Assembly: GCA_965223005.1 (NCBI GenBank)
Contig: CBDCVK010000010.1
Location: 489,322 to 553,321, forward strand
Length of the DNA: 64,000 nt
Direction of reading: 5' to 3'
From: Terriglobia bacterium
GTDB taxonomy: Bacteria > Acidobacteriota > Terriglobia > JAJPHL01 > JAPKYU01
Shown: positions 4,804-44,776 of the stretch, piece after piece
Layout: each line of letters opens with the position of its first letter
How positions within the stretch are numbered: the stretch's first letter is position 1
Position numbers and translations under genes: made by a program
The notes under the pieces: model-generated
Told to the model about the DNA's origin: nothing
Database searches by the model: none
The model's input: only the letters and a program-made list of their open reading frames with translations

Positions 4804-5696
4804 CAGTTAGCGCGGCTCATCAGAAAGGGCAACGAATTCTGAATTGCGGTGCAGGGTCTCGACCTCTGGGATCTCGTTTCATCGTGTTGCTGTGTCTTTG
4901 CCTGCTATTAGCGCTTGCTGCGGATCTGGCTCAGGCGCAGAACCTCCGGCCCGCGCCCTTGCGTGACGTTGGCATTGATCAAAAGCTGAACGAGCAATTA
5001 CCTTTGAACCTGACCTTTCGGGACGAGACCGGCAAGCCCGTACAACTTCGCCAATATTTTGGCCAGAAGCCGGTGATCCTATCTCTTGTCTATTACGATT
5101 GCCCCATGCTCTGCACGTTAGTGCTGAACGGGTTGGTCCGGAGCCTCCGGGTTGTTCCCCTCGATGTGGGAGATCAATTCGATGTGGTGACCGTAAGCTT
5201 TGATCCACGGGAGACGGCTGCGCTGGCAGCAGCCAAAAAGGAAACTTATGTTAGGCGCTATGCCCGAGCTCAGGCATCACAGGGGTGGCACTTTCTTACT
5301 GGCGAGGAGGCCTCGATTCAACAACTGACCCGGGCCGTGGGATTCCGCTATGCCTACGACGCGAAAAGCGGGGAGTTCGCTCATGCCACCGGGATTATGG
5401 TCTTGACGCCTACCGGCAGGCTTGCCCGCTACTTTTACGGAATTGATTATTCGCCCAGGGACTTGCGCCTGGCGCTGGTGGAAGCCTCGGCCAATAAGAT
5501 CGGCTCGGCCGTTGACCAGTTGCTACTGTTTTGTTTCCACTACGACCCCAAAACAGGAAAGTACAGTCTGGTCGTCATGAATGTCCTCCGCGTCGCTGGG
5601 ATGGGCACGCTTCTGACCCTGGGGAGCTTTCTGTTTGTCATGTTTCGCCGGGATCGGCGCAAATACTGGAAGCCGGAGGAAACAGGTCCGGCGTAA
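4800..5696 (+). CDS. sco: SCO1/SenC family copper chaperone (thioredoxin fold)
   Basis: Signal/TM segment, then CPMLC (CxxxC copper-binding motif) in a Trx-like domain, with a C-terminal TM. Located immediately upstream of coxB. Confidence 0.8.
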   Translation: MTVSAAHQKGQRILNCGAGSRPLGSRFIVLLCLCLLLALAADLAQAQNLRPAPLRDVGIDQKLNEQLPLNLTFRDETGKPVQLRQYFGQKPVILSLVYYDCPMLCTLVLNGLVRSLRVVPLDVGDQFDVVTVSFDPRETAALAAAKKETYVRRYARAQASQGWHFLTGEEASIQQLTRAVGFRYAYDAKSGEFAHATGIMVLTPTGRLARYFYGIDYSPRDLRLALVEASANKIGSAVDQLLLFCFHYDPKTGKYSLVVMNVLRVAGMGTLLTLGSFLFVMFRRDRRKYWKPEETGPA

Positions 5697-5705
5697 GAGA
5701 CGAGA

Positions 5706-5724
5706 AGACCGGCGATGCCGGTCT
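5706..5724 (+). terminator. Perfect 8-bp hairpin (AGACCGGC gat GCCGGTCT) between sco and coxB; possible attenuator or terminator
   Basis: Read directly from the sequence. Followed by cttactgctttgg (weakly U-rich). Confidence 0.25.
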
Positions 5725-5740
5725 CTTACTGCTTTGGATT

Positions 5741-6684
5741 ATGTGGGAAGGTTTTCCTTTATTCCCTGAACAGGCGTCCACCGTAGCGGGCGAAGTGGAC
5801 ATGCTGTTTTATTTCTTGATCGCAGTCAGTCTGTTTTTTACCGTTCTAATTTTCTCGCTGATCTTTTACTTCGCCATCCGCTACCGGAGACGCTCCGAGA
5901 CTGAACAGCCTCGTCCGATGGTCGGCTCCATCGGACTGGAGTTATTCTGGTCCATCACTCCGTTCATGATTACGGTGGTCATGTTTGTTTGGGCGACCAG
6001 CCTGTATTTCAAAAATGCCAGTCCTACGGCGGGAGCATTAGAGATCTATGTAGTTGCCAAGCAATGGATGTGGAAACTTCAGCATCCGGAGGGCCAGCGG
6101 GAAATCAACACTTTGCACGTGCCGATCGGCCGTCCCGTCCGTTTGATCATGACCTCCGAGGATGTTATCCACAGTTTTTACGTGCCTGCATTTCGGGTGA
6201 AATACGATGTATTGCCAGGACGGTACACAACCCTCTGGTTTGAGCCCACAAAAACCGGAGAATACCACTTGTTTTGCGCGGAATATTGTGGAACGAAACA
6301 TTCTCAGATGGCCGGTCGCGTCATCGTCATGACGCCACTGGAATTCGAGAAATGGCTGGGAGGGACCGCGACAGGAGAGTCGCTGGCAGAGGTTGGTCAG
6401 AGGTTGTTCCAGCGGCTCGGGTGCATTACCTGCCACCGCCCGGACGCGAGCGGACGCGGGCCCGTGCTGGAAGGTCTGTTCAACAAACCGGTGCCCTTGG
6501 CCACCGGAGAGACTGTGATCGCGGACGAGGACTACCTCCGGGAGTCGATCCTGCGGCCCAGCGCGAAAATGGTGGCTGGATACACCGTGAGAATGCCAAC
6601 CTTCCAGGGCCAGATCGGCGAGGAGGGGCTGGTGCAGATCATTGCCTTTATTAAATCTCTTAGTCGGGAAGTGCAAATCGAGGA

Positions 6685-9992: not shown

Positions 9993-11228
9993 CTAGCTTA
10001 GACGCGCCAAGCTACGGCGCAGTCGTCCCTCATCAAACAAGTCCCCCTCTTGCAACAGCAGGGCTCGTCGCAGGGTCGAATCGCCGACCGCATGGTGGCC
10101 GCGAAATTCAATCTGCCCCACCCGATAGACAGCCCCGGTTTCAATTTTCGCCTTGAGGGCGACCCATGGGCGGGCAACCGCACCCGTTTCAGCTAACCCT
10201 CCTCCCTTCGGGTCAATTCCCCCTCTGTCCCGGAGACGTTCCGAGGTCGTTTTTGCTTCCAGCAAGGCGGTGAACCCAAGTTTGCCCTCTCTTTCCGACT
10301 CGCGGCGTGCTTCTAAGAGGAATTGACACAGTTCGCGACTCGAAAAAGTGCCATCCGGCTGCGGCGGAAGTTCTTGGATCGACTCGGCTCCCACGACCTC
10401 CAGCCGCTCCACGCGATAGCGCGGTCCCGCATCCACCTGCACCGTAACTGTGGCTTTGTCCTCTGCGGTGTTCACGGTGGAGATTCCTACCTTGGCATCA
10501 AAGTAGCCGCGGGAAAGATACAGCGACTGAAGACGTTCCACGTCGGCCTGGAGGCGCTGCTGGCTGAGAGGCGCAAGTAAGCGCCAACCTCGCCATAACG
10601 GGCCTAAGCCAGGCAACAAGCGTTGCGCGCGAGTCGCGCGCAACGCTCCCCGCAACTCGTTTGGTTTCAACCCTAATGATCCCGAGAAGCGCATCTCCTG
10701 TACCCGATAGTCCCGGCCCCGCTCCACCCGGACCCGCAAGTCCGCCTGCTGGAAACCCACCGGGATCACTCCGGCTTCCACCGTCGCCTCAGCGTGACCC
10801 TGCTCGACTAGCTGCTGCCGCAGCGCAGCCGCCACTCTCTTGGCCAGCACGGCATCGATGGGCGTGCCGTTCTCAAGGTCCACCGCGCGACGCTCGTTTT
10901 CGGGGTCGAACTCAACCCGCCGCAGGTGAAGCCGCGGCTTCTCTGCCAGAATGAAAACCAGGTGCACTCCCTCCACGGATGGAGAGCTTTCGACCAGGAT
11001 GGCGTTGAACCAGCCCGTCGCCCACAGGCGACGGACGTCGTGCTCAATACGGACCAGGTCGAGCGTTTGGCCGGAGCGCGTCTCTAATTCAAGAGGCCGC
11101 AGGCTGCCACGAATCTGCAACGTTTGGATGAATGGACTGTCTGCCGCCCATAGCGCAGCATGGGAGAGAAAGGAAAGGAGGAGGGTTCTCCAAATGAACG
11201 GTCCTACCATGGAAGTAACCTCGTTCAA
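9993..11228 (-). CDS. Omp85/BamA-family protein fragment: signal peptide plus repeated POTRA domains, with the C-terminal barrel missing (probable pseudogene)
   Basis: 411 aa. N-terminal signal peptide (LLLSFLSHAALWAADS). Repeated POTRA-like beta-alpha-alpha-beta-beta units (..YRVQEMRFSG.., ..YRVERLEVVG.., ..YRVGQIEFRGHHAV..). It stops inside the last POTRA domain. Confidence 0.55.
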   Translation of the reverse strand: MNEVTSMVGPFIWRTLLLSFLSHAALWAADSPFIQTLQIRGSLRPLELETRSGQTLDLVRIEHDVRRLWATGWFNAILVESSPSVEGVHLVFILAEKPRLHLRRVEFDPENERRAVDLENGTPIDAVLAKRVAAALRQQLVEQGHAEATVEAGVIPVGFQQADLRVRVERGRDYRVQEMRFSGSLGLKPNELRGALRATRAQRLLPGLGPLWRGWRLLAPLSQQRLQADVERLQSLYLSRGYFDAKVGISTVNTAEDKATVTVQVDAGPRYRVERLEVVGAESIQELPPQPDGTFSSRELCQFLLEARRESEREGKLGFTALLEAKTTSERLRDRGGIDPKGGGLAETGAVARPWVALKAKIETGAVYRVGQIEFRGHHAVGDSTLRRALLLQEGDLFDEGRLRRSLARLS

Positions 11229-11951: not shown

Positions 11952-13453
11952 TTAGCAGCCCGTGTCTAAAATCGCCAGATGGGGAAGAAACATGTTACTT
12001 CGGAAATGTTCTTACTTACAATCGGGCCATGGCCATGGGAACGCGCAAGCATCGTCAGCGACAAGAGCCGCTGTGGTATCGGGCAGAGTTGGCCGAGGCG
12101 CCCGGACACCCGTTCTACCGGCGGCTGCACCAACTGTTGGAGGAAGCCGATTTTGATCGATTCTGCGAGAGTCGGTGCCGGCAGTTCTACCACGAGCGGC
12201 TGGGCCGACCGTCGTTGCCGCCGGGGATGTACTTCCGGTTGATGCTGATCGGCTTCTTCGAGGGGATCGACAGCGAGCGAGGCATCGCCTGGCGGGTGGC
12301 CGATTCCTTGAGTTTGCGGCAGTTTTTGCAGATTGGGCTGGATGAACAGACGCCGGATCATGTGACGATCTCGCGCACGCGGCGGCTGATGGACGAGCCG
12401 ACGCACCAGGAAGTGTTTGGATGGGTGCTGCGGCTGGTGGCCGAACGGGGCCTGCTGAAGGGCAAGACGATCGGCATTGACGCCACCACGCTGGAAGCCA
12501 ACGCGGCCATGAGGTCGATCATGCGGCGGGACAGCGGGGAAAGCTATACGGAGTACCTGAAGCGGTTGGCGGAGGCCGAAGGGATCGAAGCCCAGGATGC
12601 AGCGGCGCTGCGGAGGATGGACCGCTGCCGACCGAAGAAGATGTCCAATGCGAAGTGGGTGAACCCACATGATCGGGAAGCGGAGATCACCCGGATGAAG
12701 GACGGGCGCACGGCACTGGCTTACAAGGCCGAGCATGCGGTGGACATGGAGACTGGGGCGATTGTGGCGCTGACGGCGCACGGGGGAGCGACCGGCGACA
12801 CGGAATCGGTTCAGCAGACCCTGCCGGCGGCCGGCGCGGCGGTGGGCGAGCAGATCGCGACACCCACGGCCGAAGGGGAGTTTGTGGTGAACGCAGACGG
12901 GGTGGAAGAGGTGGTGGCCGACAAGGGGTATCACAGTGGGGAAGTGCTGGCAGAGATGCAGGCGATGGAGGTGCGGACCTACATTGCGGAGCCGGAGCGG
13001 GGACGGCGGCAATGGACGGGCAAGGAAGAGCAGAAGGCGGCGGTCTACCGCAATCGGCGGCGGGTGACGGGGCAGCGAGGGAAGGCGCTGCTGCGGAAAC
13101 GTGGGGAGATGCTGGAGCGTCCGTTTGCGCACATGTATGAGACGGGCAGGATGAGACGCTTGTATGTCCGTGGGAAGATAAACGTGCAAAAGAAACTGTT
13201 GCTGCAGGCAGCAGCCTGCAACCTGGCGCTAGTTTTGCGCCAGCTGCTGGGGGCGGGAACCCCGCGAGGCCTGCAAGACCGCATCACCGAGCTGTTTTTG
13301 CTCGTTTTCTGGATCACTGCCACAAGAATGGCCCACCCCGAATCCCCCACGCCCCTATCCTGGTGCAACGGTCAAATTCACGGCTTTGCTCTTCACTTGC
13401 CCCGCCTGAAAAAGAGGCCGGCCCAAAGGCCGGTTTAGACACGGGCTGTTAGC
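11951..13453 (+). mobile_element. IS1182/IS5-superfamily insertion sequence (about 1.5 kb) nested inside the IS256-family transposase gene
   Basis: Terminal inverted repeats GTTAGCAGCCCGTGTCTAAA (11951-11970) and TTTAGACACGGGCTGTTAGC (13434-13453), 18/20 matching. It encloses a 469-aa DDE transposase. Confidence 0.75.
12029..13438 (+). CDS. IS1182-family (IS5 superfamily) DDE transposase
   Basis: 469 aa. Motifs typical of IS1182 transposases: FYRRLHQLL, GIDATTLEANAA, DKGYHSGE, ERPFAHMYETGRMRRLYVRG...NVQKKLLLQAAACNL. Confidence 0.85.
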   Translation: MAMGTRKHRQRQEPLWYRAELAEAPGHPFYRRLHQLLEEADFDRFCESRCRQFYHERLGRPSLPPGMYFRLMLIGFFEGIDSERGIAWRVADSLSLRQFLQIGLDEQTPDHVTISRTRRLMDEPTHQEVFGWVLRLVAERGLLKGKTIGIDATTLEANAAMRSIMRRDSGESYTEYLKRLAEAEGIEAQDAAALRRMDRCRPKKMSNAKWVNPHDREAEITRMKDGRTALAYKAEHAVDMETGAIVALTAHGGATGDTESVQQTLPAAGAAVGEQIATPTAEGEFVVNADGVEEVVADKGYHSGEVLAEMQAMEVRTYIAEPERGRRQWTGKEEQKAAVYRNRRRVTGQRGKALLRKRGEMLERPFAHMYETGRMRRLYVRGKINVQKKLLLQAAACNLALVLRQLLGAGTPRGLQDRITELFLLVFWITATRMAHPESPTPLSWCNGQIHGFALHLPRLKKRPAQRPV

Positions 13454-28516: not shown

Positions 28517-28762
28517 GACGGCCTGAGCTTGATCATAGCGCACCTTGCTCACGCTCGGATAGCTTAAGTGGACTCCTCCGGAATTCAGGGCTAGCCGACC
28601 ATACTCCCGCGGTGGGTCGTCCCCGATCATCGCGCCGATGGCTGGTCACCTCGGGCGAACCCGCAAGGGCTCGCAGGCGGATGGGAAAGACTCTCGGCGC
28701 ACGGTTGCCCCCGCCCTCTGCGAATTTTGGCCATCAACGCTCTGTTTCCGTTGTATATCTAC

Positions 28763-28786
28763 TTGTCTATCTGGTTGTCTATCTGG
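28763..28786 (+). promoter_or_regulatory. Perfect tandem 12-mer TTGTCTATCTGG x2 immediately upstream of the nox-like start codon
   Basis: Read directly from the sequence. AT-richer patch 9 nt before ATG 28795. Confidence 0.3.
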
Positions 28787-28794
28787 CGGTTCGC

Positions 28795-30162
28795 ATGCTG
28801 GCTAACCGGTTGTTGGTAGTTGGAGGACAAGCTGCAGGACTGAGTGCGGCCAGCCGGGCGCGCCGGCTGGACTCGCGGCTGCATATCACCGTCTTGGAAC
28901 AAGGGCACCATATCTCCTACAGCGCCTGTGGCTTGGCCTATTTACTCAGCGGGCAGGTGCCGCGAGCCGAGGATCTGCTGGTGTACTCGGCCGAATTTTT
29001 TCGGGAGCAGCGCAACATCGAGGTGCTGGTTGGCATGCGGGTGGTTGAGATCGAGCCGGGACGGCGGAGGGTACGCGCCCTGGCCGTCGAGACCGGGCAA
29101 GAACACCTGTTCCCTTACGACCGGTTGGTTCTGGCCACGGGCACCCGGCCAGACTGGCCCGCCATCCCCGGCATGGATTCACCCGGCGTCTTCCAAGGGA
29201 ACAACCTGGCAGGGACGCTGGCCTTACAGGCCTTCCTGGAAACCGGCCAGCGGCCTCGTCGGGCCGTCGTCCTGGGCGGTGGCTATATTGGGCTGGAGTA
29301 CGCCGAGGCGTTGCGCCAGCGAGGTCTGCACGTTGTGGTGCTCCACTGCGGCAGCGAGCTATTGGAGGGATTCGATCCGGAAATCAACGAGCTGGTGGAA
29401 CAGAGGCTACTGCAACACGGCGTGGAAGTGTTTAAGGGCACTCCGGCTACCGCGATCCTGGGGCAGGGGCGCGTGCAGCGGGTGCTCTCTGCCGCCGGGC
29501 GGCACGAGGCGGACCTGGCGTTAGTGGCCACCGGCGTTGTGCCACGCTCCGAGGTGGCCATAGCCGCCGGCCTATCCACCGGGGTGAGGGGTGCAATCGT
29601 CGTGGATGAGCGGATGCAAACCAGCCTGCCCGGCGTCTATGCCGCCGGCGATTGTGCTCATACGATTCACCTGGTAACCGGGCGTCCTGTCTACATCCCG
29701 CTGGGCACGACCGCAAACAAACAGGGCCGCGTCGCGGGCGAGAATGCCGCCGGTGGCAACGCGCGCTTTGCAGGCATCGTAGGCACCACTGTCACCCGGG
29801 TGTTCGAATTGGAGTGCGGCCGCACTGGTTTGTCGGAATCCGAAGCGCGCGCCGGAGGCTTCCGCGTGGTCACCGCGGTCATCGAGCACGGGAGCCGCGC
29901 TCACTACTTTGGAGCCAAGCAGATGCGGGTGAAGCTGCTGGCCGACCGCGCCAATGGACGCCTCCTAGGGGGGCAGCTGCTGGGCGAGGAAGGGGTGGCC
30001 AAGCGGGTCGACGTGGTGGCCACGGCCCTGCATGCGCGTATGAATATTGAGCAACTGGCTGGCCTGGACTTGAGTTATGCGCCGCCTTTCGCCCCGGTTT
30101 GGGACCCGCTCCTGACTGCCGCAAATGCTCTGGGCCGGAAACTTCGTGACGGACGTGGCTGA
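28795..30162 (+). CDS. FAD-dependent pyridine nucleotide-disulfide oxidoreductase (NADH oxidase / CoA-disulfide reductase family)
   Basis: GGQAAGLSAA FAD motif, single redox Cys in ISYSACGLAY (CoADR/Nox Cys42-type), GGGYIGLE NAD motif. Confidence 0.8.
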   Translation: MLANRLLVVGGQAAGLSAASRARRLDSRLHITVLEQGHHISYSACGLAYLLSGQVPRAEDLLVYSAEFFREQRNIEVLVGMRVVEIEPGRRRVRALAVETGQEHLFPYDRLVLATGTRPDWPAIPGMDSPGVFQGNNLAGTLALQAFLETGQRPRRAVVLGGGYIGLEYAEALRQRGLHVVVLHCGSELLEGFDPEINELVEQRLLQHGVEVFKGTPATAILGQGRVQRVLSAAGRHEADLALVATGVVPRSEVAIAAGLSTGVRGAIVVDERMQTSLPGVYAAGDCAHTIHLVTGRPVYIPLGTTANKQGRVAGENAAGGNARFAGIVGTTVTRVFELECGRTGLSESEARAGGFRVVTAVIEHGSRAHYFGAKQMRVKLLADRANGRLLGGQLLGEEGVAKRVDVVATALHARMNIEQLAGLDLSYAPPFAPVWDPLLTAANALGRKLRDGRG

Positions 30163-30267
30163 CAGTGGCCTGCGTGGCTGGCAGTGGCCAGCTAGGATAA
30201 GCGCCGGCGCAAGTTGACACTTCATGTTCGGCAGGTTATATCCACACTGATAGGGAGGAAGCGGCGT

Positions 30268-30768
30268 ATGAGTGCTTTGGAGGCAGAGTCGCGGGCGGCG
30301 GACTTTCTTCTGCCGGGCCTGGACAACAAGACATATTCGTTGGCGGAATCGTTGAAAGAGGGGCCGGTGCTGGCCGCTTTCTTCAAGTCAAGCTGTCCGG
30401 TCTGCCAACTCACCTTTCCATTCCTGGAACGGTTTCAGCACCATTTCCGCGAAACCAAGGCGCACATCTGGGCTGTCAGCCAGGATGAGCCGGAGGAGGC
30501 GCTAACGTTCGCCACCGAATACGGGCTCAGCATGCCGGTGCTCCTGGAGAATGTAGAACACAACTATCCGGTATCAAATGCCTACGGCCTGACTCACGTC
30601 CCTACAGTCTTCCTGATCGGTCAGGCCGGTGACATCCTGCAGACCTCGGTCGGTTTCGTACGCAAAGAGCTGGTCCAGATGGGCCGTAGGCTGGAGATGC
30701 TCACCGGCAGAAAGGGTTTCGTGCCTTTCGGGGAACAGGACGAGGTCCCGGAATGGCAGTCCGGTTGA
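30268..30768 (+). CDS. Thioredoxin-like / redoxin-family thiol-disulfide oxidoreductase (CPVC active site)
   Basis: FKSSCPVCQLTFPF. Start taken at the internal Met MSALEAE of the 30214 ORF. Confidence 0.6.
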   Translation: MSALEAESRAADFLLPGLDNKTYSLAESLKEGPVLAAFFKSSCPVCQLTFPFLERFQHHFRETKAHIWAVSQDEPEEALTFATEYGLSMPVLLENVEHNYPVSNAYGLTHVPTVFLIGQAGDILQTSVGFVRKELVQMGRRLEMLTGRKGFVPFGEQDEVPEWQSG

Positions 30769-31090: not shown

Positions 31091-31185
31091 TGGCGGAAGG
31101 TTATGGGAATCGAACCCATCGCTGCTCGTGAGAAACAGCCACCGGCTTTGAAGGCCGGGCGAGTCACCAGACCCGATTACCTTCC
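31091..31185 (-). tRNA. selC: Selenocysteine tRNA (tRNA-Sec), anticodon UCA
   Basis: 95-nt minus-strand tRNA GGAAGGTAATCGGGTCTGGTGACTCGCCCGGCCTTCAAAGCCGGTGGCTGTTTCTCACGAGCAGCGATGGGTTCGATTCCCATAACCTTCCGCCA. It has an 8-bp acceptor stem, a 6-bp D-stem with 4-nt loop (CGGGTC/TGGT/GACTCG), a CUUCAAA anticodon loop, a long variable arm, a 5-bp T-stem with TTCGATT loop, G discriminator and encoded CCA. This is the bacterial tRNA-Sec 8/5 architecture, strongly similar to E. coli selC. Confidence 0.85.
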
Positions 31186-31229: not shown

Positions 31230-33704
31230 TCAACGGGAGGCAGTCCGTTCCAGAGCCCGCTCGGTGTACCGATACACCAGGTGGTTGGTGCATACTTCGT
31301 AGTAGCGTCGCTGGGTGTACTCCTTCAAGCTGAAGGAGTGGGCATCCACAAAGGGAATCTGCGCTTCGCGCACCACCAGCCGCTGGAACACCTCGTTGGG
31401 CAAGGGGAAGGCACCACAGTGCAGCGTCACCTTTTCCGGCTGCCAGAGCAAGGGCATTTCCAGCTCGACCGGCTGGAGCGAAATCTCCTCTTGCAGTTTG
31501 TCAAACGCCTCCTCGCTCAGGCAAATCCCGGTGTTGTAGCGGACCAGGAACTCTTCCATGGCGCCTGCGGCGGCCTCTTCGGTGATGGTCTGGAACACGA
31601 ACGCCCGGAAGAGCGACTGCTTGCTGTCCAGCGCGCGGCGGGCCAGCTTGCTGCACCCGCTGAGCCGGTCGGCCAGGTTGATGGCCGAGGAGATCATGAT
31701 CCGGGTCTCGCCGTCCAGCAGGTACATGGGCGTCGAGTTCTGCCAGCAGATTCCGATGCCAATCTCCAGCCGCGGCAAGTCCGCCTTCTCGGCCCTCGCA
31801 TTGTATTGCTCGACCACGGCCATGATCTCCCGCGCCAAGCCACAGGCTCGGGCCACGGGATAACCGCCCAGCGCCGCACCTTGTTTCTCGAACATTGCCA
31901 GAATCACCGCGTCGCCCTCAATGAACACCTTCTCACCGGCGTACTTGGGCAGCAGCTTGTTCAGCGGTTCGTAAAAGTTCAGACTGAAGTGGCTGGCCGG
32001 ATTCAGGCCGCGGGCGAACAGGTCGGCGGTGAGCCGGGTGGAGTCACGCACGTCGGCTTTCAGAATCACGTGGCCTAGTATCTGTTCGCCCTGCGGCTTG
32101 TCCTCCGCCGGCAGCAGGAACTCGTACAGGGTGTTGTTGATTCGGGAAAGCTGCCGGGTTTTTTCCTCAAACAGCAGGTTGACCCGCTCCATCAGGCCTT
32201 GCAGGGCCTGTAGCAGGCAATTGTCGCGGTGGTGCCGCAGGAAATCGCGAACGAAGCGAACGAGAAAGGCGCGGAGGTCACGTGGTTGATAGGTACGCAC
32301 TCGAGCGGCGGCCTCTTCCAGAGTGGCTACGCTGGCCCGGGTCAGCTTGTAATGCGTGATCAGGTCGGCCACCTTCTTGAGTTCGGAAGGGTCCAGGAGG
32401 GCGCGTTTCAGTTGCTGCGGATGGATCGGCGGGCAGTAGTCCTGGTAGACGTTCGCCGTCTCGTAGGCGGCGGCGAAGCAGGGCAATAGCCCCAACTGCT
32501 GCGCTGCGTTATAAAATTCATCAACTAGCTGGCGCTGGATCTCTAGCCTTTCCTTCAGGGCGCTCAGTTCTTTCCGCGGTGCCTTTCGCGACTGCGCCTC
32601 AGCCAGCAGTTGCTCGGTGCGCACAGTACCGAGCAGCTGCTCCACATTTTCGGGGACGTTGAGCATCTCCGTCAGGTGCGCGTCATAGGCTTCCGTCGAC
32701 AGCCGCAGTTGTTCGGCCGACTGCCTCAGTTGTCTCTCCGGCTCCTCTAGGCGCCCCGCAAGATCGGGAGAGGCCGGAGACGGGGTCTCGGGGCGGGGAC
32801 CGAAGAGGCGTCCCAATCCCAATCCCAGCCCGCGCTCGGGAGGCTGGAGCTGGTCGCGCAAAGATGAGGTCCGGCTGGCCAATTGGTGATGCTCCTGCTG
32901 ACGGGTCTCCAGCTCACGCGCCTCCGGTCCGACTGCGTCCACCCCCTTGAGCATGGACTTCAGCCAGCGCTCCACGGATTCGTACAGGTCCGGGTCGCGG
33001 TGGAAGTTGCCCAACATGACGTACTTGGTTAGCTGAATGTAATCGTCACGGCCGGTTTCGGTGAACACCAGCGGGTGAGAAAAGTAAGTGAACCAGGGAC
33101 TGGCTTCGTCGCCGAAAAAGGATTCGCGCGTCTTGCGGACCACACCAGCCTGCACTTCGTTAGCCAGCGACAGTAATTCATTCGAAACGCGTCGGAAGAC
33201 GTTCTTCTTGTCGGCCTGAAACTCGCTGAAGATTTCCTTCAGTTGGAAGGCGCGCAAGTTCCGATCGTGGCGCGGCCCTTCATACATCCGCAGCTTGTTC
33301 TTGCCCTCCATCTGGATGCGGCCGTACTGTTGCTGCACTTCCCAGCTCAGGTACTTGAAGAGGGCGACGTTTCCCAATAGGTCGATGTCGGGGTTGCGCG
33401 CCTCCTTGGCGTGGCTGAGCGCACTGAGCAGTACCTCCTGCAACAGACGCTTGAATTCGTTGCGCTCCTGCGGCTTGGGCGGGCCCGGGTTCTGCTCCGC
33501 CAGTTCAGGCGCGCGGCTGTGCTTCATAAAGAGCTTGAGAATGTAGCCCCCGGTGAAGCCGATGAAGCGGGAGCTCAGGTGGACGTCGTGGCGGACGTTG
33601 TCCACGCCCGGCACTAGCGATGGAAAGCGCAGGTCCGGTGCGGACCCGACGAGGTGAACCGCTGCATATACGCGTTCCGGGCTGGAACGGGAGAACAGCG
33701 GCAT
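31230..33704 (-). CDS. Large cytoplasmic protein with a C-terminal class III adenylate/guanylate cyclase-like catalytic domain and an uncharacterised ~580-aa N-terminal region
   Basis: C-terminal ILKADVRDSTRL...EGDAVILAMF...LEIGIGI...ISSAINLADRL follows the CHD cyclase pattern (FADIxGFT...GDA...IGI..G.......G..VNLAARL). The N-terminus is not recognised. Confidence 0.6.
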   Translation of the reverse strand: MPLFSRSSPERVYAAVHLVGSAPDLRFPSLVPGVDNVRHDVHLSSRFIGFTGGYILKLFMKHSRAPELAEQNPGPPKPQERNEFKRLLQEVLLSALSHAKEARNPDIDLLGNVALFKYLSWEVQQQYGRIQMEGKNKLRMYEGPRHDRNLRAFQLKEIFSEFQADKKNVFRRVSNELLSLANEVQAGVVRKTRESFFGDEASPWFTYFSHPLVFTETGRDDYIQLTKYVMLGNFHRDPDLYESVERWLKSMLKGVDAVGPEARELETRQQEHHQLASRTSSLRDQLQPPERGLGLGLGRLFGPRPETPSPASPDLAGRLEEPERQLRQSAEQLRLSTEAYDAHLTEMLNVPENVEQLLGTVRTEQLLAEAQSRKAPRKELSALKERLEIQRQLVDEFYNAAQQLGLLPCFAAAYETANVYQDYCPPIHPQQLKRALLDPSELKKVADLITHYKLTRASVATLEEAAARVRTYQPRDLRAFLVRFVRDFLRHHRDNCLLQALQGLMERVNLLFEEKTRQLSRINNTLYEFLLPAEDKPQGEQILGHVILKADVRDSTRLTADLFARGLNPASHFSLNFYEPLNKLLPKYAGEKVFIEGDAVILAMFEKQGAALGGYPVARACGLAREIMAVVEQYNARAEKADLPRLEIGIGICWQNSTPMYLLDGETRIMISSAINLADRLSGCSKLARRALDSKQSLFRAFVFQTITEEAAAGAMEEFLVRYNTGICLSEEAFDKLQEEISLQPVELEMPLLWQPEKVTLHCGAFPLPNEVFQRLVVREAQIPFVDAHSFSLKEYTQRRYYEVCTNHLVYRYTERALERTASR

Positions 33705-34311: not shown

Positions 34312-34460
34312 CTTTCACCTCCAACGCCTGCAAAGATATGCGCGCTCCACCCGACTGGCAATAGAACGCCCGTCTCATTTTGCGTGGGACGGCAGTACTG
34401 AGTCCGCCCACCCCGATGGTACTGCGTGTCCTAGCTGGCCCGAACCCCGCTGGCTCCCGC

Positions 34461-35006
34461 TCATCCCCCGGCAGACAGACGACTGCAAACCGCATAGGCG
34501 CCGTTGGGGTCAATCGCGCTCCCGCCTTTCTCGATGTGGCGAATGATCCCCTGCTTATCCACCACGAAGGTGACCCGCAGAGCGAAGTTGCGCTCGGGAT
34601 CCAGAATCCCGTATTTCTTGCTGACCTCGCGCATGAAGTCGCTCAGAAGCGGAAACTTCACCCCGAGGTCTTCGGCGTAACGACGATTGGCGTAAGAGCT
34701 ATCCACGCTGATGCCCAGCACCTGCGAGCCGGTCTTTTCGAATTTGGCGATATCATCCTGATACGCCTTCAGTTCCTTCGTTCAACCACCCGTGAATGCC
34801 AGGACGTAGAAGGCCAGTACCACATTCTTCTTCCCCTTGAAATCGCTCAACCGGACCGGCTTGTTGTTCTGATCCGGAAGCGTGAAATCGGGCGCGGAAT
34901 CGCCTACTTTCAGATGGGTCATGACGTCGGGTGGCGGCTGAGCCGGGGCCAGACTGAGTGGCGCGGGCAGAATCAAAGCCAGTGCCAAAGCTGTTCGACA
35001 AACCAT
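34461..35006 (-). CDS. Exported PrxQ/Bcp-type peroxiredoxin with an in-frame UGA (34782-34784) at the peroxidatic Cys position: predicted selenocysteine-containing peroxiredoxin
   Basis: ORFs 34782-35183 and 34461-34721 are in the same frame, separated only by TGA. Read through, the sequence is ...VVLAFYVLAFTGG-U-TKELKAYQDDIAKFEKTGSQVLGISVDS..., matching the Prx motif FYP.DFTPGCTxE with Sec replacing Cys. Signal peptide MVCRTALALALILPAPLSLAPAQ. A SECIS-like hairpin follows the UGA, and selC lies 3.3 kb away. Confidence 0.7.
34746..34767 (-). promoter_or_regulatory. SECIS-like hairpin in the mRNA 15 nt downstream of the in-frame UGA
   Basis: mRNA: UGA acgaaggaacugaa GGCGUAUC AGGAU GAUAUCGCC. 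This is a GC-clamped stem with one bulged U and an apical loop containing GG/U. Spacing and shape are like bacterial SECIS elements. Confidence 0.45.
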
Positions 35007-35522
35007 ACGCCTACCTCCAGTTTCTTGCAATTTCGGGATTTGCACAGGATTCCGTCGATGCGCTCGTTCCTTGCACGACCCCCGAATTATGTACCCAAAT
35101 CCTGGCTTCGTCCAGTTTTTGGTAGCGGACACTCCACTGCGGCGAGGGTCCTGCAGCGGCGGTGGGAGTCCACGGCTTTCCATCTTGACACCACGAGGAC
35201 CCGAAGCTAGGATGCGCCTACACGAGAAAGGAGGTGGTCGATGTTGCAGGATCCATTATGTAGGCCCCGTGAGGTGGTCGCGCCTTAGGGCGGAATTTGC
35301 CTCAGAGCCGTCGTGTTTTCTTTCTGCTTGCCTGTGGCTGTAGAATTCCGCCTCAGGTACTCTTACGCGGCTACCGGCGCCGGGCAGGAGGGGTTGGCCC
35401 TTCGGCCCGGCGTTTCGCTTCTATCAGGGTGCTGAAAATTAGCGACTGGATCCGCTCAGAACCGTTTTCTGACGCCCGCAGTTCCTTAACTGTAACCACT
35501 TGTCAAGCCGCAACCCACTGAT

Positions 35523-39474: not shown

Positions 39475-39825
39475 TTACTTGGCGCGGAACACGACCCAGG
39501 AGAAGACGATCGCCGCCAGGACGCTAATGATCAGAAAAATTCCAGTGGGGATGAAGTTCCCGGTCTTGGCTACCCGCATGGAGAAATTGATCGTCAGCAA
39601 CAGCGCCGTCACCGAAGCAATGGCAAACCCCGGCCGTGGTCGGGAGCGGGACACGGCGAAGGCGCCCAGCAACACGATCGCGCTGCCGAAGCCCCCGATG
39701 AGGGAGGCGGTGCTTCCGGCGGCGCGGTAGCCCATGATGCCGCCGATCAGCATCAGCGCCGCGTAAGTTAGAAGAGCAATCGTCGCAAATCTGGTCATTG
39801 GCTGGCTCTCAGCGAAAGACAACAC
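39475..39825 (-). CDS. Small four-TM membrane protein (TMEM14-like)
   Basis: 116 aa with four hydrophobic helices. Confidence 0.45.
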   Translation of the reverse strand: MLSFAESQPMTRFATIALLTYAALMLIGGIMGYRAAGSTASLIGGFGSAIVLLGAFAVSRSRPRPGFAIASVTALLLTINFSMRVAKTGNFIPTGIFLIISVLAAIVFSWVVFRAK

Positions 39826-39834
39826 GCCGGGGGT

Positions 39835-40584
39835 TCATCGAGCGAGCTTCCGGTAGTCCTCGGCGACGATATCAACCAGGCGGCACATTTCTTGCAGCCG
39901 GGACGTCACTCGCGCTCCCAGGCGCTCTTCGAAGGTTGCATACGTGCGGCGCTTTCCAGGCACGCCGCTCACGGGGTCTTCCTTCAGATTGGCGGTGAGC
40001 AGCGTGGGCTTCTTCTCGTTGTAGCGGTGATTGAGGAGGTAGTTAATGGTGTCTTCCACCCAGTCGGAAACGCGGTTGGCTCCCAGATCGTCAATCACCA
40101 CCACTTCGGTCTCCAGTACCGGCCGCATCACCTCACGCTCGGCGGTCAGCGCCTTCGGGTTGTAGCTGGACTGGATGCGCTTCAGCAGTTCCTGGTAGTC
40201 CAGGAACAGGACTTCGGCGCCCTTCTCGACGAGGCCTTTCAGCAGAGCCACCGTCAGGTGGGTCTTGCCGACGCCGGTCTCGCCCATCAGTAGCAGGCCC
40301 TTGCCGTCCACCAGCGGGTAGTCGGCCAGGTACTGATCCACGACGCCTAAAGCTTTCCACAGCGACTCGTTGCGCGGGCCGCCCCGCGGCGGGTACAGCT
40401 CGAAATTGGTGAAGGCGCAGGCCTGGTACCGCGGCGGAATCCGCGCCGCAGCCAGTGCGCGCTCCAGGCGGGTCTGGGTGCGGCACTCGCAGGGCACCAC
40501 GGCGTCGCCGGTTCCGCTGGAGCGCCAGCCAGTGCCCGAGCACAGCGGGCACGCCACAGATGCGTCACTGATCGGCGAGGCCAT
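39835..40584 (-). CDS. DnaC/DnaI-like AAA+ ATPase with an N-terminal Cys4 zinc-binding motif (helicase-loader family)
   Basis: CPLCSGTGW...CECR zinc motif. Walker A GETGVGKTHL, Walker B VVVIDDLG. Confidence 0.65.
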   Translation of the reverse strand: MASPISDASVACPLCSGTGWRSSGTGDAVVPCECRTQTRLERALAAARIPPRYQACAFTNFELYPPRGGPRNESLWKALGVVDQYLADYPLVDGKGLLLMGETGVGKTHLTVALLKGLVEKGAEVLFLDYQELLKRIQSSYNPKALTAEREVMRPVLETEVVVIDDLGANRVSDWVEDTINYLLNHRYNEKKPTLLTANLKEDPVSGVPGKRRTYATFEERLGARVTSRLQEMCRLVDIVAEDYRKLAR

Positions 40585-40739
40585 GGCATCCAGTCCAAGC
40601 TATCCCGACACCGGGCAAATTCCGGTCCCTACAATATCGCCTTGAACGCCATGGGTCAAAGAATGCCGAGTGTCTCCTACACAGGCGCCGGAGACGCTCG
40701 TAAACACGGTGGTAGTGGCCGGGCTTTAGCTGCTCCAAT

Positions 40740-41606
40740 TCACGGCTTTGTCTTATGAGCGCTAAGCAGAAATCCAGACACGATTCCAATGAGCTGGATT
40801 GCTGCTCGCGCTTCTACATCTGAAACGGTCGGCAGCCAAGGTCTTCCGTGTCCAGTACCCTCCTTGTTTCTGAGAGCGTTCACAGCACAACCAGTCTCGT
40901 ATAGAGCCCGCGCCAGTCGACGCTGTGGCGGTTCGGTTTGCTGTGGTGCGGTAAGTGGAGTTGCGAGCTCTAATGCTGTGAACGCCTGACCGAGCAGTGT
41001 GGGGAAGTTGGCTTGTTGAGGATACTGTCCGTAGCGTTCATAGATCACGTGAGCCGCTGTGGCCTCCAACAGGTCTTTGCCCGCGCCCACCAAGAGCGCG
41101 GCATCCTGACTTCCTCGTCGGGCACGCCGAACATACGCCTCTAGGGCGCTTGTTAACTGCACACCAGTGAGCGTGTCGATACTAGTGGGTTGGAGCTCTC
41201 CTTCCGCCGTGAGCACATACCCTTCACCGCGGAATGCGTCCGCAGCATCTGTGATTGCGTCTTCCCTGACAAAGTTGGGAGACCCGCGGCGGAATCCACC
41301 CTTTCCCCGAATCAGCGCAACCAGTGCAGCTAGGAAGACCTCTCCGCTTTCGGGAGCATTATCCAACGCCCAGCTCAACACTGCTCGAACTCTCTTCGCC
41401 TTACCGACGATTTGCCCCTGCAATTTGGGATCGCCTGCGCCCAGATCTGCGCGAGTAATCCGGAACTCGATGTCGGAATGGCTTGGCTCGCGCGTTTCTG
41501 TCTGCGCGTCGTCTACAAGGCGAGCGACCGCGGTTATGATGGCGTCACTGAGCGGCGCGTGCGGTCGTTTTTCTCGTTGATTCGTTGTCACACTTGACCA
41601 CCCCAC
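40740..41606 (-). CDS. Abortive-infection-like protein with a C-terminal Abi_C/HEPN domain (AbiJ-like architecture)
   Basis: C-terminal ...ALYETGCAVNALRNKEGTGHGRPW... carries the HEPN Rx4-6H motif (R-NKEGTG-H), in the context typical of the Abi_C family (RN..GtGHG). The N-terminal ~180 aa are unassigned. Confidence 0.5.
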   Translation of the reverse strand: MGWSSVTTNQREKRPHAPLSDAIITAVARLVDDAQTETREPSHSDIEFRITRADLGAGDPKLQGQIVGKAKRVRAVLSWALDNAPESGEVFLAALVALIRGKGGFRRGSPNFVREDAITDAADAFRGEGYVLTAEGELQPTSIDTLTGVQLTSALEAYVRRARRGSQDAALLVGAGKDLLEATAAHVIYERYGQYPQQANFPTLLGQAFTALELATPLTAPQQTEPPQRRLARALYETGCAVNALRNKEGTGHGRPWLPTVSDVEARAAIQLIGIVSGFLLSAHKTKP

Positions 41607-41642
41607 CCAATACCGATGTGAACCAGCCTAACGCAATGAAGC

Positions 41643-42221
41643 TCAGTCGCGCGGCGCCTTCTTGCAGTTCGCTGCATCCTGGCACTCCACAGCTACGCTT
41701 GGTCGCTTCGAGACCTGGCTCCTCCCCTTATTCCACAGAGCGCCAAGGACCCCCAACCACACGGTCCCGACAAACACCATGACCCAAGGGTGAACGCACT
41801 TCTCATACAGGTGAACGCACTTCTCATACAAGTTGAACAGTAACTTGACGCCTACCACGGTGAACGAACCCACGAACATATGCCACATGTGGGGCCACCT
41901 CGGCGTTGTATCCTGTAGGAAATCCTTGAGTTTCCCTTCTTGTAGTAATTCGTGGTGAAGGCGCGACCGGAAAAATCGAAAGGTGGCGACGTAATACACC
42001 CCCATCACGGTCAAGAGAAGGCCAGCGGACTCAGGCCACAACTCTTCGGCGTTTTTGTCATCAAAGCTAGCCGCGAGCAGAGCACCAACCCCAGCTGAGA
42101 AAATGGTGATTACGACCCATTGGAGTTGGTCATAGTGTCGGCTCCACTCCTGCCCATGCTGGTGCGCATCCTGGTCGGTTTTCTTTCTTTCTTTTTCCTC
42201 GTCTTCCTTTTCCACCGACAC
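41643..42221 (-). CDS. Hypothetical multi-TM membrane protein in a lower-G+C patch; carries an internal 21-bp tandem duplication
   Basis: 192 aa. Acidic N-terminus (SVEKEDEEKERKK) then 4 TM helices. LYEKCVH is duplicated (41790-41831). Codon usage is visibly AT-richer than its neighbours. Confidence 0.45.
   Translation of the reverse strand: MSVEKEDEEKERKKTDQDAHQHGQEWSRHYDQLQWVVITIFSAGVGALLAASFDDKNAEELWPESAGLLLTVMGVYYVATFRFFRSRLHHELLQEGKLKDFLQDTTPRWPHMWHMFVGSFTVVGVKLLFNLYEKCVHLYEKCVHPWVMVFVGTVWLGVLGALWNKGRSQVSKRPSVAVECQDAANCKKAPRD
41790..41831 (+). repeat. 2 x 21-bp tandem repeat GTGAACGCACTTCTCATACA(G/A)
   Basis: Read directly from the sequence. Encodes LYEKCVH-LYEKCVH on the minus strand. 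Confidence 0.8.
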
Positions 42222-42664
42222 CTCCCTTGCAGCCTAACTCTTGTTTATGCTGTCCCGCATAAAATCCGTCCCGGTCGGCACAAGAGGAAACCCCCACAGC
42301 CGGGCTGCGGTGGTGACTTCTGAGTTCAGCGGAATTCGCGTCCGCGTGCAATTATAGCTGACCGAGATGCCTTAGAGCGGTTGACGATAGTGCGCTATAG
42401 CCTTGTAGCCAATCCTTCTTCCCGTGTGCCTGTTGCTGTCGCGAACAGCCCTTTACACCAACAAACGATTACCGCCCAATAAACGCTGTTCCCGGATTGT
42501 GACTTCGGGCTGGGATGCGCCGGTTTCCAGTTCAAACTGACCGACTAGCGGAGGGGTGGGTCGTTGATGCGGTTAGGGGCGTGTGCTAGGATGGGCGTCT
42601 TGGAAGCCGCCGGGAAAATCTACCGGGGCGGAGCCTTCCCTTTCCGCTCCAAGGAGCTTCTGCC

Positions 42665-44776
42665 TTGAAGGTGTACCACGGCAAAGACATCCGCAACGTT
42701 GGGGTGGTTGGCCACGGGGATGCCGGTAAGACCACGCTGGTCTCCGGGCTGCTCTACACGGCCGGCATTGTGACCCGGCTGGGCCGTGTGGACGACGGCA
42801 ACACGGTGACTGATTTCGACGAGGAGGAAATCCAGCGCCGGGTGAGCATCTCGACCGGGCTGGCCTACCTGGAATGGAAGAAGGTCAAGGTCAATCTGCT
42901 GGATACGCCCGGCTACAACATCTTCCTGAATGACGCCAAAGGCAGTCTGGTCGCCGCCGATACCGCGCTGGTGGTGGTGGACGGGGTGGCAGGAGTGGAA
43001 GTGCAGACCGAAAAAGTGTGGGGCTTTGCCGAGGAGAACAGCCAGCCCCGGCTGCTGGTGATCAACAAGATGGATCGGGAGCGGGCCAGCTTCGAGCGGG
43101 CGATGGAATCCATCGGCAACGTATTCGGCCGCGCGGCCATTCCTCTCCAGTTGCCGATCGGAGAAGAACGCGGCTTCCGCGGCGTGGTGGATCTGCTGCG
43201 GATGAAGGCGTTCACCTACCAGAATGACGGGGACGGCAAGGGAGCGGAAGCCGACATTCCCCCCGAGCTGGCCGAGGCCGCCGGGGCTGCCCGCGACAAG
43301 CTGGTGGAGATGATCGCCGAGGGCAAAGATTCACTCATGGAGGAGTTCTTCGACCAGGGCACCCTGAGTCCGGAACACCTGCAGGAGGGGCTGCAGGAAG
43401 CCATCCGCGCCAGCAGGATTTATCCCGTGTTTTGTGTCTCGGGCTATCACAACGTGGGCAACGACCTGTTATTGGATTTTCTGGTGGATTTCTTGCCCAC
43501 CGCGGTCGAGCGCGGTTCGGTCTCTGGCAGCGTTCCGGGAGACGGCGCCGGTCCGCTCGCCCGGAAGCTGGCGGACTCCGAACCTGTTTCCCTGTTTGTC
43601 TTCAAGACCAGCGCCGACCCGTTCGCCGGCCGCCTCTCCTACTTCAAGGTCTACTCCGGAGTGCTGAAGAACGACACCACCCTGGTGAATTTCAACAAGG
43701 GACACCAGGAGCGGCTTGCCCACATCACGGTGGCGCAGGGCAAAGAGCATGCCGGAGTGCAGGAGATCCGGGCGGGGGACCTGGGGGTGGTCACCAAGCT
43801 GAAAGACACCGTAACGGGCCAGACGCTGGGGGACAAGGCGGCCCCGATTCTGTATTCTCCCGTGAAGCTGCCCGAGCCGCTGATTGCCTTCGCCATCCAG
43901 CCCAAGTCGCGGGCCGATGAGGACCGCCTGGGCCCCGCCTTGCACAGGATCCTGGAGGAGGACCCGTCGCTGCGCTTCTACCGCGACCCGCGAACCCACG
44001 AATTCCTGCTAGCCGGGGCCGGGCAGCAGCACGTGGAGGTGATCGTCTCCCGGCTCAAGCGGCGCTACCACGTGGAGGTGCAGTTGAAGGCGCCCAAGGT
44101 GCCCTACCGCGAGACCATCCGCGGCACTGCCGACGTAGAAGGCAAGCATAAGAAACAAACGGGCGGCCACGGCCAGTTCGGCGTCTGCCAAATCAAGATG
44201 GAACCGACGCCGCGCGGAGCCGGCTTTGAGTTTGTCAACGACATCTTCGGCGGGGCCATCCCCAAGAACTACATCCCGGCGGTGGAGAAGGGCATCGTCG
44301 AGTCTGCCCAACGCGGCTTTCTGGCAGGCTATCCGGTGGTGGACTTCCGCGCCACCCTCCATGATGGGAAGTATCACGATGTGGATAGTTCAGAGTTGGC
44401 CTTCAAGATTGCCGGTTCGCTGGCCTTCAAGAGCGCCATGAAGGAGGCCAAGCCCATCTTGCTGGAGCCGATCATGAGCGTGGAAGTCCTCTCGCCGGAC
44501 CAATTCGCCGGCGACCTCATGGGAGACCTAAACTCCCGACGGGGCCGCATCCAGGGCATGGAGAACCGGGGGACGCTCACGGTGATCAAAGCGCAAGTGC
44601 CGATGGCCGAGATGCTAACCTATGCCACCGACCTGACCTCCAAAACCCAGGGGCGCGCCAGCTATAGCATGGAATTCTCCCACTACGACACGGTGCCACA
44701 GCAGATTGCCGATAAGGTGATCGCTGCCACGAAAGCGGCGCGTGCGGCCGAGGCAGCGGGGGAGGGAGAAGCATAG
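42665..44776 (+). CDS. fusA: Elongation factor G (EF-G family translational GTPase, possibly an EF-G2 paralogue)
   Basis: 703 aa. G-domain motifs GHGDAGKTT, DTPGY, NKMD, plus EF-G domains II-V. Confidence 0.9.
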   Translation: MKVYHGKDIRNVGVVGHGDAGKTTLVSGLLYTAGIVTRLGRVDDGNTVTDFDEEEIQRRVSISTGLAYLEWKKVKVNLLDTPGYNIFLNDAKGSLVAADTALVVVDGVAGVEVQTEKVWGFAEENSQPRLLVINKMDRERASFERAMESIGNVFGRAAIPLQLPIGEERGFRGVVDLLRMKAFTYQNDGDGKGAEADIPPELAEAAGAARDKLVEMIAEGKDSLMEEFFDQGTLSPEHLQEGLQEAIRASRIYPVFCVSGYHNVGNDLLLDFLVDFLPTAVERGSVSGSVPGDGAGPLARKLADSEPVSLFVFKTSADPFAGRLSYFKVYSGVLKNDTTLVNFNKGHQERLAHITVAQGKEHAGVQEIRAGDLGVVTKLKDTVTGQTLGDKAAPILYSPVKLPEPLIAFAIQPKSRADEDRLGPALHRILEEDPSLRFYRDPRTHEFLLAGAGQQHVEVIVSRLKRRYHVEVQLKAPKVPYRETIRGTADVEGKHKKQTGGHGQFGVCQIKMEPTPRGAGFEFVNDIFGGAIPKNYIPAVEKGIVESAQRGFLAGYPVVDFRATLHDGKYHDVDSSELAFKIAGSLAFKSAMKEAKPILLEPIMSVEVLSPDQFAGDLMGDLNSRRGRIQGMENRGTLTVIKAQVPMAEMLTYATDLTSKTQGRASYSMEFSHYDTVPQQIADKVIAATKAARAAEAAGEGEA

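Follow-up and report, generated by a model that had tools for sequence, protein, structure and literature searches.

Sequence evidence for a probably exported peroxiredoxin with selenocysteine at its peroxidatic position in a Terriglobia bacterium

In this work, we have analysed a stretch of 64,000 nucleotides of DNA from a Terriglobia bacterium (contig CBDCVK010000010.1), referred to here as the window, in which two adjacent open reading frames (ORFs) of the minus strand appear to be a single gene coding for a peroxiredoxin (Prx) whose peroxidatic residue would be selenocysteine (Sec), encoded by an in-frame UGA. Translation of the window shows that positions 35006..34461 form one frame of 181 codons, Sec75 included, which ends with the stop TGA at 34463..34461 and is interrupted only by the TGA at 34784..34782, as had been proposed in an earlier reading of this DNA made from its letters (the sequence-only reading). 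Around the interruption the product reads ...AFYVLAFTGG*TKELKAYQDDIAKFEK..., or, with more of its N-terminal side, ...KKNVVLAFYVLAFTGG*TKELKAYQDDIAKFEK.... The start codon, ATG at 35006..35004, is backed by the conserved N-termini found among close relatives, and a Shine-Dalgarno-like GGAGG, read from the sequence, stands 7 nt 5' of it (35014..35018, minus strand). Our results support, from the sequence, a Sec-peroxiredoxin with Sec at the peroxidatic position, a hairpin of the selenocysteine insertion sequence (SECIS) type past the UGA, a tRNA-Sec gene (selC) nearby, a probably exported product and a gene that annotation pipelines split in two.

The read-through protein matches the Pfam AhpC-TSA domain (PF00578) along the whole profile, positions 1-124 of 124, with E=5.5e-40 and 136.6 bits against a cut-off of 26. 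The upstream ORF alone corresponds to profile positions 1-39 and the downstream ORF alone to positions 42-124; therefore, the two ORFs are the halves of one domain and not two genes. The possibility of two separate genes is ruled out by this complementary coverage, and no sign was seen of halves coming from different families, as both are AhpC-TSA. The position of the interruption within the domain is also informative, since in the alignment to proteins of solved structure the TGA column (34782..34784, minus strand) is that of the peroxidatic Cys of Mycobacterium tuberculosis AhpE (FPLAFTGIC) and of a Sulfolobus Prx (AAFTQVC), which agrees with the earlier proposal that the UGA occupies the place of the peroxidatic Cys.

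This codon is conserved well beyond the window. We gathered loci from one genome per GTDB species, from JGI metagenomes (with a Cys form as the seed) and from look-ups of the exact protein, to which the window itself was added, and across this set of Acidobacteriota loci, genomic and metagenomic, that codon reads TGA at 75 sites and TGC or TGT at 30. The 75 TGA loci span 48-94% protein identity to the window protein, with both halves intact, and they come from Terriglobia, Blastocatellia, Pyrinomonadaceae, Bryobacteraceae, subdivision 13 and one bin labelled Eisenbacteria; full-length homologues are 55-94% identical to the window protein. Tandem gene pairs, each copy with its own TGA and hairpin, were observed in three loci (L008, at about 5480-6630; L012, at 9566 and 10195; L013, at 3058 and 3675), and in another (L104, at 1713 and 2246) a Cys copy adjoins a Sec copy. 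Among the best 120 database homologues (P0001-P0120) the active-site column holds Cys in 74 and 'W' in 45, the remaining one being a C-terminal fragment that ends short of this column. In the 'W' form that was checked (P0008, locus L054) the contig DNA reads TGA at that codon; the contig is short, and its gene caller had translated TGA instead of stopping there. The 'W' forms are thus gene-caller artefacts, and the residue of the homologues at the UGA column is either Cys or encoded by TGA.

Public gene calls also split the gene, as the sequence-only reading had anticipated. The exact 74-residue N-terminal fragment is present in NCBI, JGI and ENA records, on contigs of up to 3.13 Mb; it is carried by 16 contigs, and the 6 that are shown call a separate C-terminal fragment of 81 or 86 residues. 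Its public name, found in exact or near-exact copies of the N-terminal half (P0121, P0123 and P0124), is 'cytochrome oxidase Cu insertion factor (SCO1/SenC/PrrC family)', a mis-annotation that arises because the gene is split at the UGA.

The sequence-only reading had also described a hairpin downstream of the UGA, with a bulged U and an AGGAU loop, and we found this structure after a spacer of 14 nt (34746..34767, minus strand). Its 9-bp stem, GGCG-UAUC(A) / (U)GAUA-[U]-CGCC, closes a loop that can be drawn as AGGAU (or GGA) and carries the bulged U on its 3' side (at 34750); the hairpin includes the loop core CAG-N-N-UG. Bacterial SECIS elements stand directly past the UGA, with an apical loop that lies about 16-37 nt downstream and opens with a conserved G; the loop of the Escherichia coli fdhF element reads GCAGGUCUGC. 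In the window the loop starts 23 nt past the UGA and reads UCAGGCUGA, so that both the position of the element and its loop G fit this description.

Covariation was analysed over 60 nt, counted from the UGA, of the 66 distinct TGA forms, pairing columns 18-26 with columns 30-39 with one bulge. Standard pairs occupy 92% of the cells, a value that falls to 20-57% if the 3' side of the pairing is shifted by 1-3 columns, and compensatory, two-sided changes are seen at 6 of the 9 pairs. The pair formed by columns 24 and 32 is U-A in 38 sequences and C-G in 28, and it is broken in none. This exchange links UAU to UAC, synonymous for Tyr, to the replacement of Asp (GAU) by Gly (GGU), and constraint on the protein alone would hardly account for it. 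The loop core CAG-N-N-UG and its first G (G27) are invariant in the TGA forms. When the 30-nt stretch was folded, the energies ranged from -6.7 to -13.9 kcal/mol in the 66 unique Sec forms versus 0 to -6.0 in the 25 distinct Cys forms, without overlap (Mann-Whitney U=0, p=1.9e-13, sequences being counted without phylogenetic correction). Every UGA form has the hairpin, and every Cys form lacks it. Since it is restricted to the UGA forms, shows compensatory changes at most of its pairs and keeps the G of its loop, the comparison supports the view that this hairpin would behave as a bacterial SECIS.

The gene for tRNA-Sec, selC, with anticodon UCA, is located at 31091..31185 on the minus strand, 3.3 kb from the peroxiredoxin gene. 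It was found both by ARAGORN (anticodon TCA) and by the Rfam model RF01852 (78.5 bits, the gathering score being 47; E=1.8e-14), in accordance with the earlier claim. The same proximity is seen in the loci L001, L003 and L004 and in the distant locus L023 (50% identity), where tRNA-Sec, at 10556-10650, lies directly 3' of the Sec-peroxiredoxin gene; of the remaining 17 genome loci scanned, none gave a tRNA-Sec gene within the stretch retrieved. The three closest metagenome-assembled genomes (91-94% identical) share the order MlaEFD, Prx, an ORF of 824 aa and selC.

What kind of peroxiredoxin is encoded here? The best sequence match in the PDB is M. tuberculosis AhpE (E=1.3e-28), and archaeal Prx of the Bcp type are also close. 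The AlphaFold model of a homologue that is 58% identical to the window protein (P0053; mean pLDDT, the per-residue model confidence, of 88) superposes in Foldseek on AhpE, which is among its top matches, with a root-mean-square deviation of 1.6-1.9 A and 40% identity, and it does so also on Sulfolobus Bcp1 and Bcp4, again among the top matches. The best NCBIfam match of the window protein is Bcp (PRK09437), with a score of 89.8 versus an equivalog cut-off of 140; the scores are 76.2 versus 270 for PrxU (NF040737) and 62.6 versus 260 for PrxQ (NF053650), and there are weak matches to models of the ResA/TlpA type. Because the protein falls below the Bcp, PrxQ and PrxU cut-offs and its nearest structures are AhpE and archaeal Bcp, the most fitting description is that of an AhpE/Bcp-like peroxiredoxin and not of a strict PrxQ/Bcp member. 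Of the PrxQ/Bcp assignment in the sequence-only reading, the peroxiredoxin part stands and the subfamily does not: the Bcp score is too low, there is no Cys five residues past the active site, and the second Cys is C-terminal.

The residues of a peroxiredoxin active site can be recognised in the protein. The motif T72-G-G-U75 places the UGA-encoded residue at the peroxidatic position of T/S-x-x-C/U; the codon of the catalytic Thr72 (34791..34793, minus strand) belongs to a nearly invariant column of the family alignment, and that of the conserved catalytic Arg144 (34575..34577, minus strand; motif R-x-T-F) to a column that is invariant in an alignment of 58 sequences. Another conserved residue is Cys174 (34485..34487, minus strand; ...AYAVC...), a candidate resolving Cys located in the C-terminal helix. 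All 46 Sec forms have this C-terminal Cys, as do 73 of the 74 Cys forms, which makes 119 of the best 120 homologues; it is also found in all 25 genome loci, and in the P0053 model it lies in the last helix. By analogy with the Prx5-type enzymes, Cys174 may resolve the oxidised Sec as a selenenylsulfide.

The N-terminus, MVCRTALALALILPAPLSLAPA|QPPP, has a hydrophobic core followed by AxA and thus the shape of a signal peptide for the general secretory pathway; the predicted peptide comprises residues 1-22, MVCRTALALALILPAPLSLAPA (34941..35006, minus strand), with cleavage expected after A-P-A. Similar N-termini, with an n-region, a hydrophobic core and AxA, are present in nearly all Sec and Cys forms, and two of them have a lipobox-like ...AC. 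Since typical signal peptides are seen at the start of nearly all members, whether they have Sec or Cys, the family is probably exported, and the signal peptide noticed in the sequence-only reading has its equivalents in nearly all the homologues.

We propose, with high confidence, that the locus codes for one 181-residue precursor of an exported AhpE/Bcp-like peroxiredoxin that uses selenocysteine as its peroxidatic residue. In the model that we favour, the hairpin located 14 nt downstream would recruit a SelB-type factor carrying Sec-tRNA(Sec), the product of selC, so that the UGA at 34784..34782 would be decoded as Sec75, and the signal peptide would direct the precursor across the inner membrane by the secretory pathway. 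Once in the envelope, Thr72 and Arg144 would activate the Sec75 selenolate for its attack on the peroxide, in which it would become a selenenic acid, and this would condense with the invariant Cys174 into a selenenylsulfide. An envelope thiol-disulfide reductase may then reduce this bond and recycle the enzyme.

Several observations weigh against this proposal. Taken by itself, the window hairpin is not significant (z=-1.49), and 19 of 200 shuffled sequences fold equally well; it becomes significant only when related loci are compared. The hairpin lies within coding sequence, so part of its conservation is protein constraint, and no Rfam SECIS model matched the 121-nt region at gathering scores or at E<=10. 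A tblastn search with the E. coli proteins found no selA, selB or selD, either within the 64 kb of the window or in the flanking DNA of related loci, the single weak match being that of a GTPase domain, in the elongation factor G (EF-G) gene at 42665-44776. No gene for a reductant is linked to the peroxiredoxin gene, as within 6 kb on either side, in 21 loci, nothing is shared beyond close relatives. Lastly, the Pro of the PxxxTxxC motif, otherwise universal in the active site, is Val68 in the window protein (34803..34805, minus strand).

The loss of this Pro could mark a change of function, and in that case the product would be a Sec-containing protein of thioredoxin fold that is not a peroxide reductase, such as a thiol-disulfide oxidoreductase of the envelope or a redox sensor. 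All 25 Cys forms keep the Pro, and so do 22 of the 66 Sec forms, the other 44 distinct Sec forms having V (36), I (3), S (3), A (1) or L (1) instead. The failure to reach any of the NCBIfam equivalog cut-offs and the weak matches to ResA/TlpA-type models point in the same direction, and selenoproteins described as 'Prx-like thiol:disulfide oxidoreductase' are known (PMC1794560). However, the motif is TxxU and neither UxxC nor CxxU, the catalytic Thr and Arg are invariant or nearly so, and the best sequence and fold matches, AhpE and Bcp, are true peroxiredoxins; moreover, the Pro-retaining Sec forms belong to this very family and are closely related. We consider such a change of function unlikely, and keep the assignment as a peroxidase. 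Even less probable is that the UGA stands for a standard amino acid, either Trp or Gly (codes 4 and 25) or else Cys, by near-cognate decoding or by a Cys-tRNA(Sec). The JGI pipeline did write W in 45 homologues, and sel genes were not seen in the window, but TGA is the stop of 16 of the 24 confident window genes, and therefore it is not a sense codon in general here. In addition, Trp or Gly at the peroxidatic site, where Cys and Sec alternate, would kill catalysis, a dedicated tRNA-Sec gene is present, and a structure found only in the UGA forms stands where a SECIS is expected. A pseudogene or an assembly error, that is, a Cys-peroxiredoxin gene hit by a nonsense change from TGC or TGT to TGA (for which one base suffices) and making at most fragments like the 74 aa and 81 or 86 aa of the gene callers, has a negligible probability and is effectively refuted by conservation, given a TGA in the same column in 75 loci over the range of 48-94% protein identity, two halves that are intact and evidently constrained, a hairpin that covaries and an identical N-terminal half in 16 independent contigs. 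The pseudogene and the TGA-as-sense readings have thus been rejected in view of the conserved TGA, the covarying hairpin, the tRNA-Sec and the use of TGA as an ordinary stop, the first and the last of which also rule out a sequencing error and an alternative genetic code.

Sec-peroxiredoxins have been known for a long time and are among the commonest bacterial selenoproteins, and the window gene is an ordinary one among them. A survey of bacterial selenoproteomes published in 2006 ranked 'Peroxiredoxin (Prx), TxxU' fifth among the families by size (PMC1794560), and a Sec-peroxiredoxin family is also included in a 2026 review (PMC13188914), which cites the PrxU of Eubacterium acidaminophilum as an experimentally shown Sec-peroxiredoxin (Sohling et al. 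2001). The supplement to the 2006 survey has an entry, 'Anaeromyxobacter_dehalogenans_2', that reads ...ILAFYTKAFTPGUTRELSAYRD...AIDPAGAITSC... (PMC1794560). This A. dehalogenans protein (Prx_2) belongs to the same Pfam family and has Sec at TxxU, and its identity with the window protein is 48% over 140 residues. Like the latter, it is devoid of the motif Pro (FYTKAFTPGU) and ends in ...AIDPxGA..C with the same C-terminal Cys; in contrast to the window protein, which comes from Terriglobia (Acidobacteriota), its published sequence is N-terminally truncated and export is not noted. Because this Sec orthologue was listed in 2006, the subfamily has been catalogued for two decades, and the novelty claimed in the sequence-only reading was overrated. 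Where that reading called selenoproteins poorly documented in Acidobacteria-like genomes, the 2006 survey already lists Acidobacteria as users and counts four selenoproteins in them (PMC1794560). The supplement passages available to us contain no acidobacterial Prx, Solibacter included (PMC1794560).

The nearest characterised proteins each differ from the window protein in several respects. PrxU of E. acidaminophilum (NF040737) also has Sec as the peroxidatic residue, but it belongs to a different subfamily, as the score of 76.2 bits against a cut-off of 270 indicates, and it is a cytoplasmic, AhpC/Prx1-like protein of an anaerobic Firmicute, whereas the window protein is AhpE/Bcp-like with a predicted signal peptide. 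AhpE (Rv2238c; PDB 1xvw, 4x0x and 5id2) is the best sequence match of solved structure and has the same local motif, LAFTG-x-C. However, AhpE is a cytoplasmic 1-Cys enzyme that uses Cys, keeps the motif Pro and is devoid of a C-terminal resolving Cys, while the window protein uses Sec, has Val where AhpE has the Pro, and carries a predicted signal peptide and the invariant C-terminal Cys. The AhpE subfamily is mycoredoxin/mycothiol-dependent, and the window protein is closest to it by relationship but shares neither its 1-Cys character nor its cytoplasmic location. With the BCP/PrxQ proteins (E. coli Bcp, PRK09437; Sulfolobus Bcp1 and Bcp4, PDB 3drn and 3hjp) it has in common a Prx fold of monomer size, as the Foldseek top matches show, and it differs from them in scoring below the equivalog cut-off (89.8 versus 140) and in lacking the resolving Cys at +5. 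By its proposed role it can be likened to PprX of Caulobacter crescentus, a cell-envelope peroxiredoxin reduced through ScsB/TlpA (PMC3322552), which sets a precedent for an exported peroxiredoxin working in the oxidising envelope on a membrane electron relay; PprX, however, uses Cys, and no ScsB, DsbD or TlpA partner is linked to the window gene.

The literature that we searched gives no account of the breadth of the Sec form in Acidobacteriota, of its export signal or of a Pro loss restricted to Sec forms. What appears to be new is thus a matter of detail: how widely the Sec form occurs across Acidobacteriota, the predicted export signal, and the loss of the Pro in Sec forms only. We tentatively hypothesize that these genes make up a large and systematically mis-annotated clade of cell-envelope seleno-peroxiredoxins, perhaps one of the main selenoproteins of soil Acidobacteriota, in which Sec would be ancestral, the Cys forms would be reversions and the Pro would have become dispensable after Sec was in place. 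The last point is suggested by the loss of the Pro in two thirds of the Sec forms and in no Cys form. In a rough neighbour-joining tree, which we do not hold to be reliable, the Cys forms are nested inside the Sec forms that retain the Pro. If this hypothesis is true, the clade would be a natural experiment on how Sec alters the structural requirements of a Prx active site. The division into Sec forms (with the hairpin, and often without the Pro) and Cys forms (without the hairpin, and with the Pro) also offers a comparative data set for the evolution of SECIS elements and for the exchange between Sec and Cys. Furthermore, the supply of selenium may matter for the envelope peroxide defence of abundant soil bacteria, because the Sec form occurs in 75 Acidobacteriota loci, is probably exported and is often duplicated in tandem. 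For annotation, two fragments, one of them labelled 'SCO1/SenC family', become one probable selenoenzyme, and the organism becomes a likely user of selenocysteine. The principles of bacterial selenoprotein biology are not changed by the window gene, which will not surprise a specialist.

Other features of the window were weaker or are not tied to this gene. A consensus scan gave a weak sigma-70-like promoter match, TGGACG-17-CATAAT (9/12), about 80 nt 5' of the start (35086..35114, minus strand), and an equally weak terminator-like hairpin with a T-rich tail about 90 nt past the stop (34342..34369, minus strand), in a scan where the number of terminator-like hairpins found was near the chance expectation. 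A mechanical screen of the window for other TGA codons that might be read through returned 203 frames, too noisy to interpret at 61% GC, and a search of a plasmid collection gave no match. The ORF of 824 residues between selC and the peroxiredoxin gene (31230-33704, minus strand) has no Pfam or NCBIfam match and is conserved in close relatives only; since in some of these it has been called as two or three shorter genes, it may be disrupted there. Near selC, on the strand opposite to that of the peroxiredoxin gene, are a flavoprotein resembling CoA-disulfide reductase (28612-30162, plus strand), which scores 387 bits where the equivalog cut-off is 579, and a ResA/TlpA-like protein of thioredoxin fold with the motif CPVC (30214-30768, plus strand). 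The two are syntenic in close relatives and have no obvious signal peptide, and we draw no link between them and the peroxiredoxin. Finally, the segment at about 39800-42300, between the Tmemb_14/tsaD genes and EF-G, varies among relatives that are otherwise syntenic: where the source contig has IstB-like ATPase and Abi_C genes, L001 has Kelch-repeat genes and other relatives have transposases. Together with a DUF772/DDE transposase at 12029-13438, this variable segment shows signs of mobile-element activity in the window.

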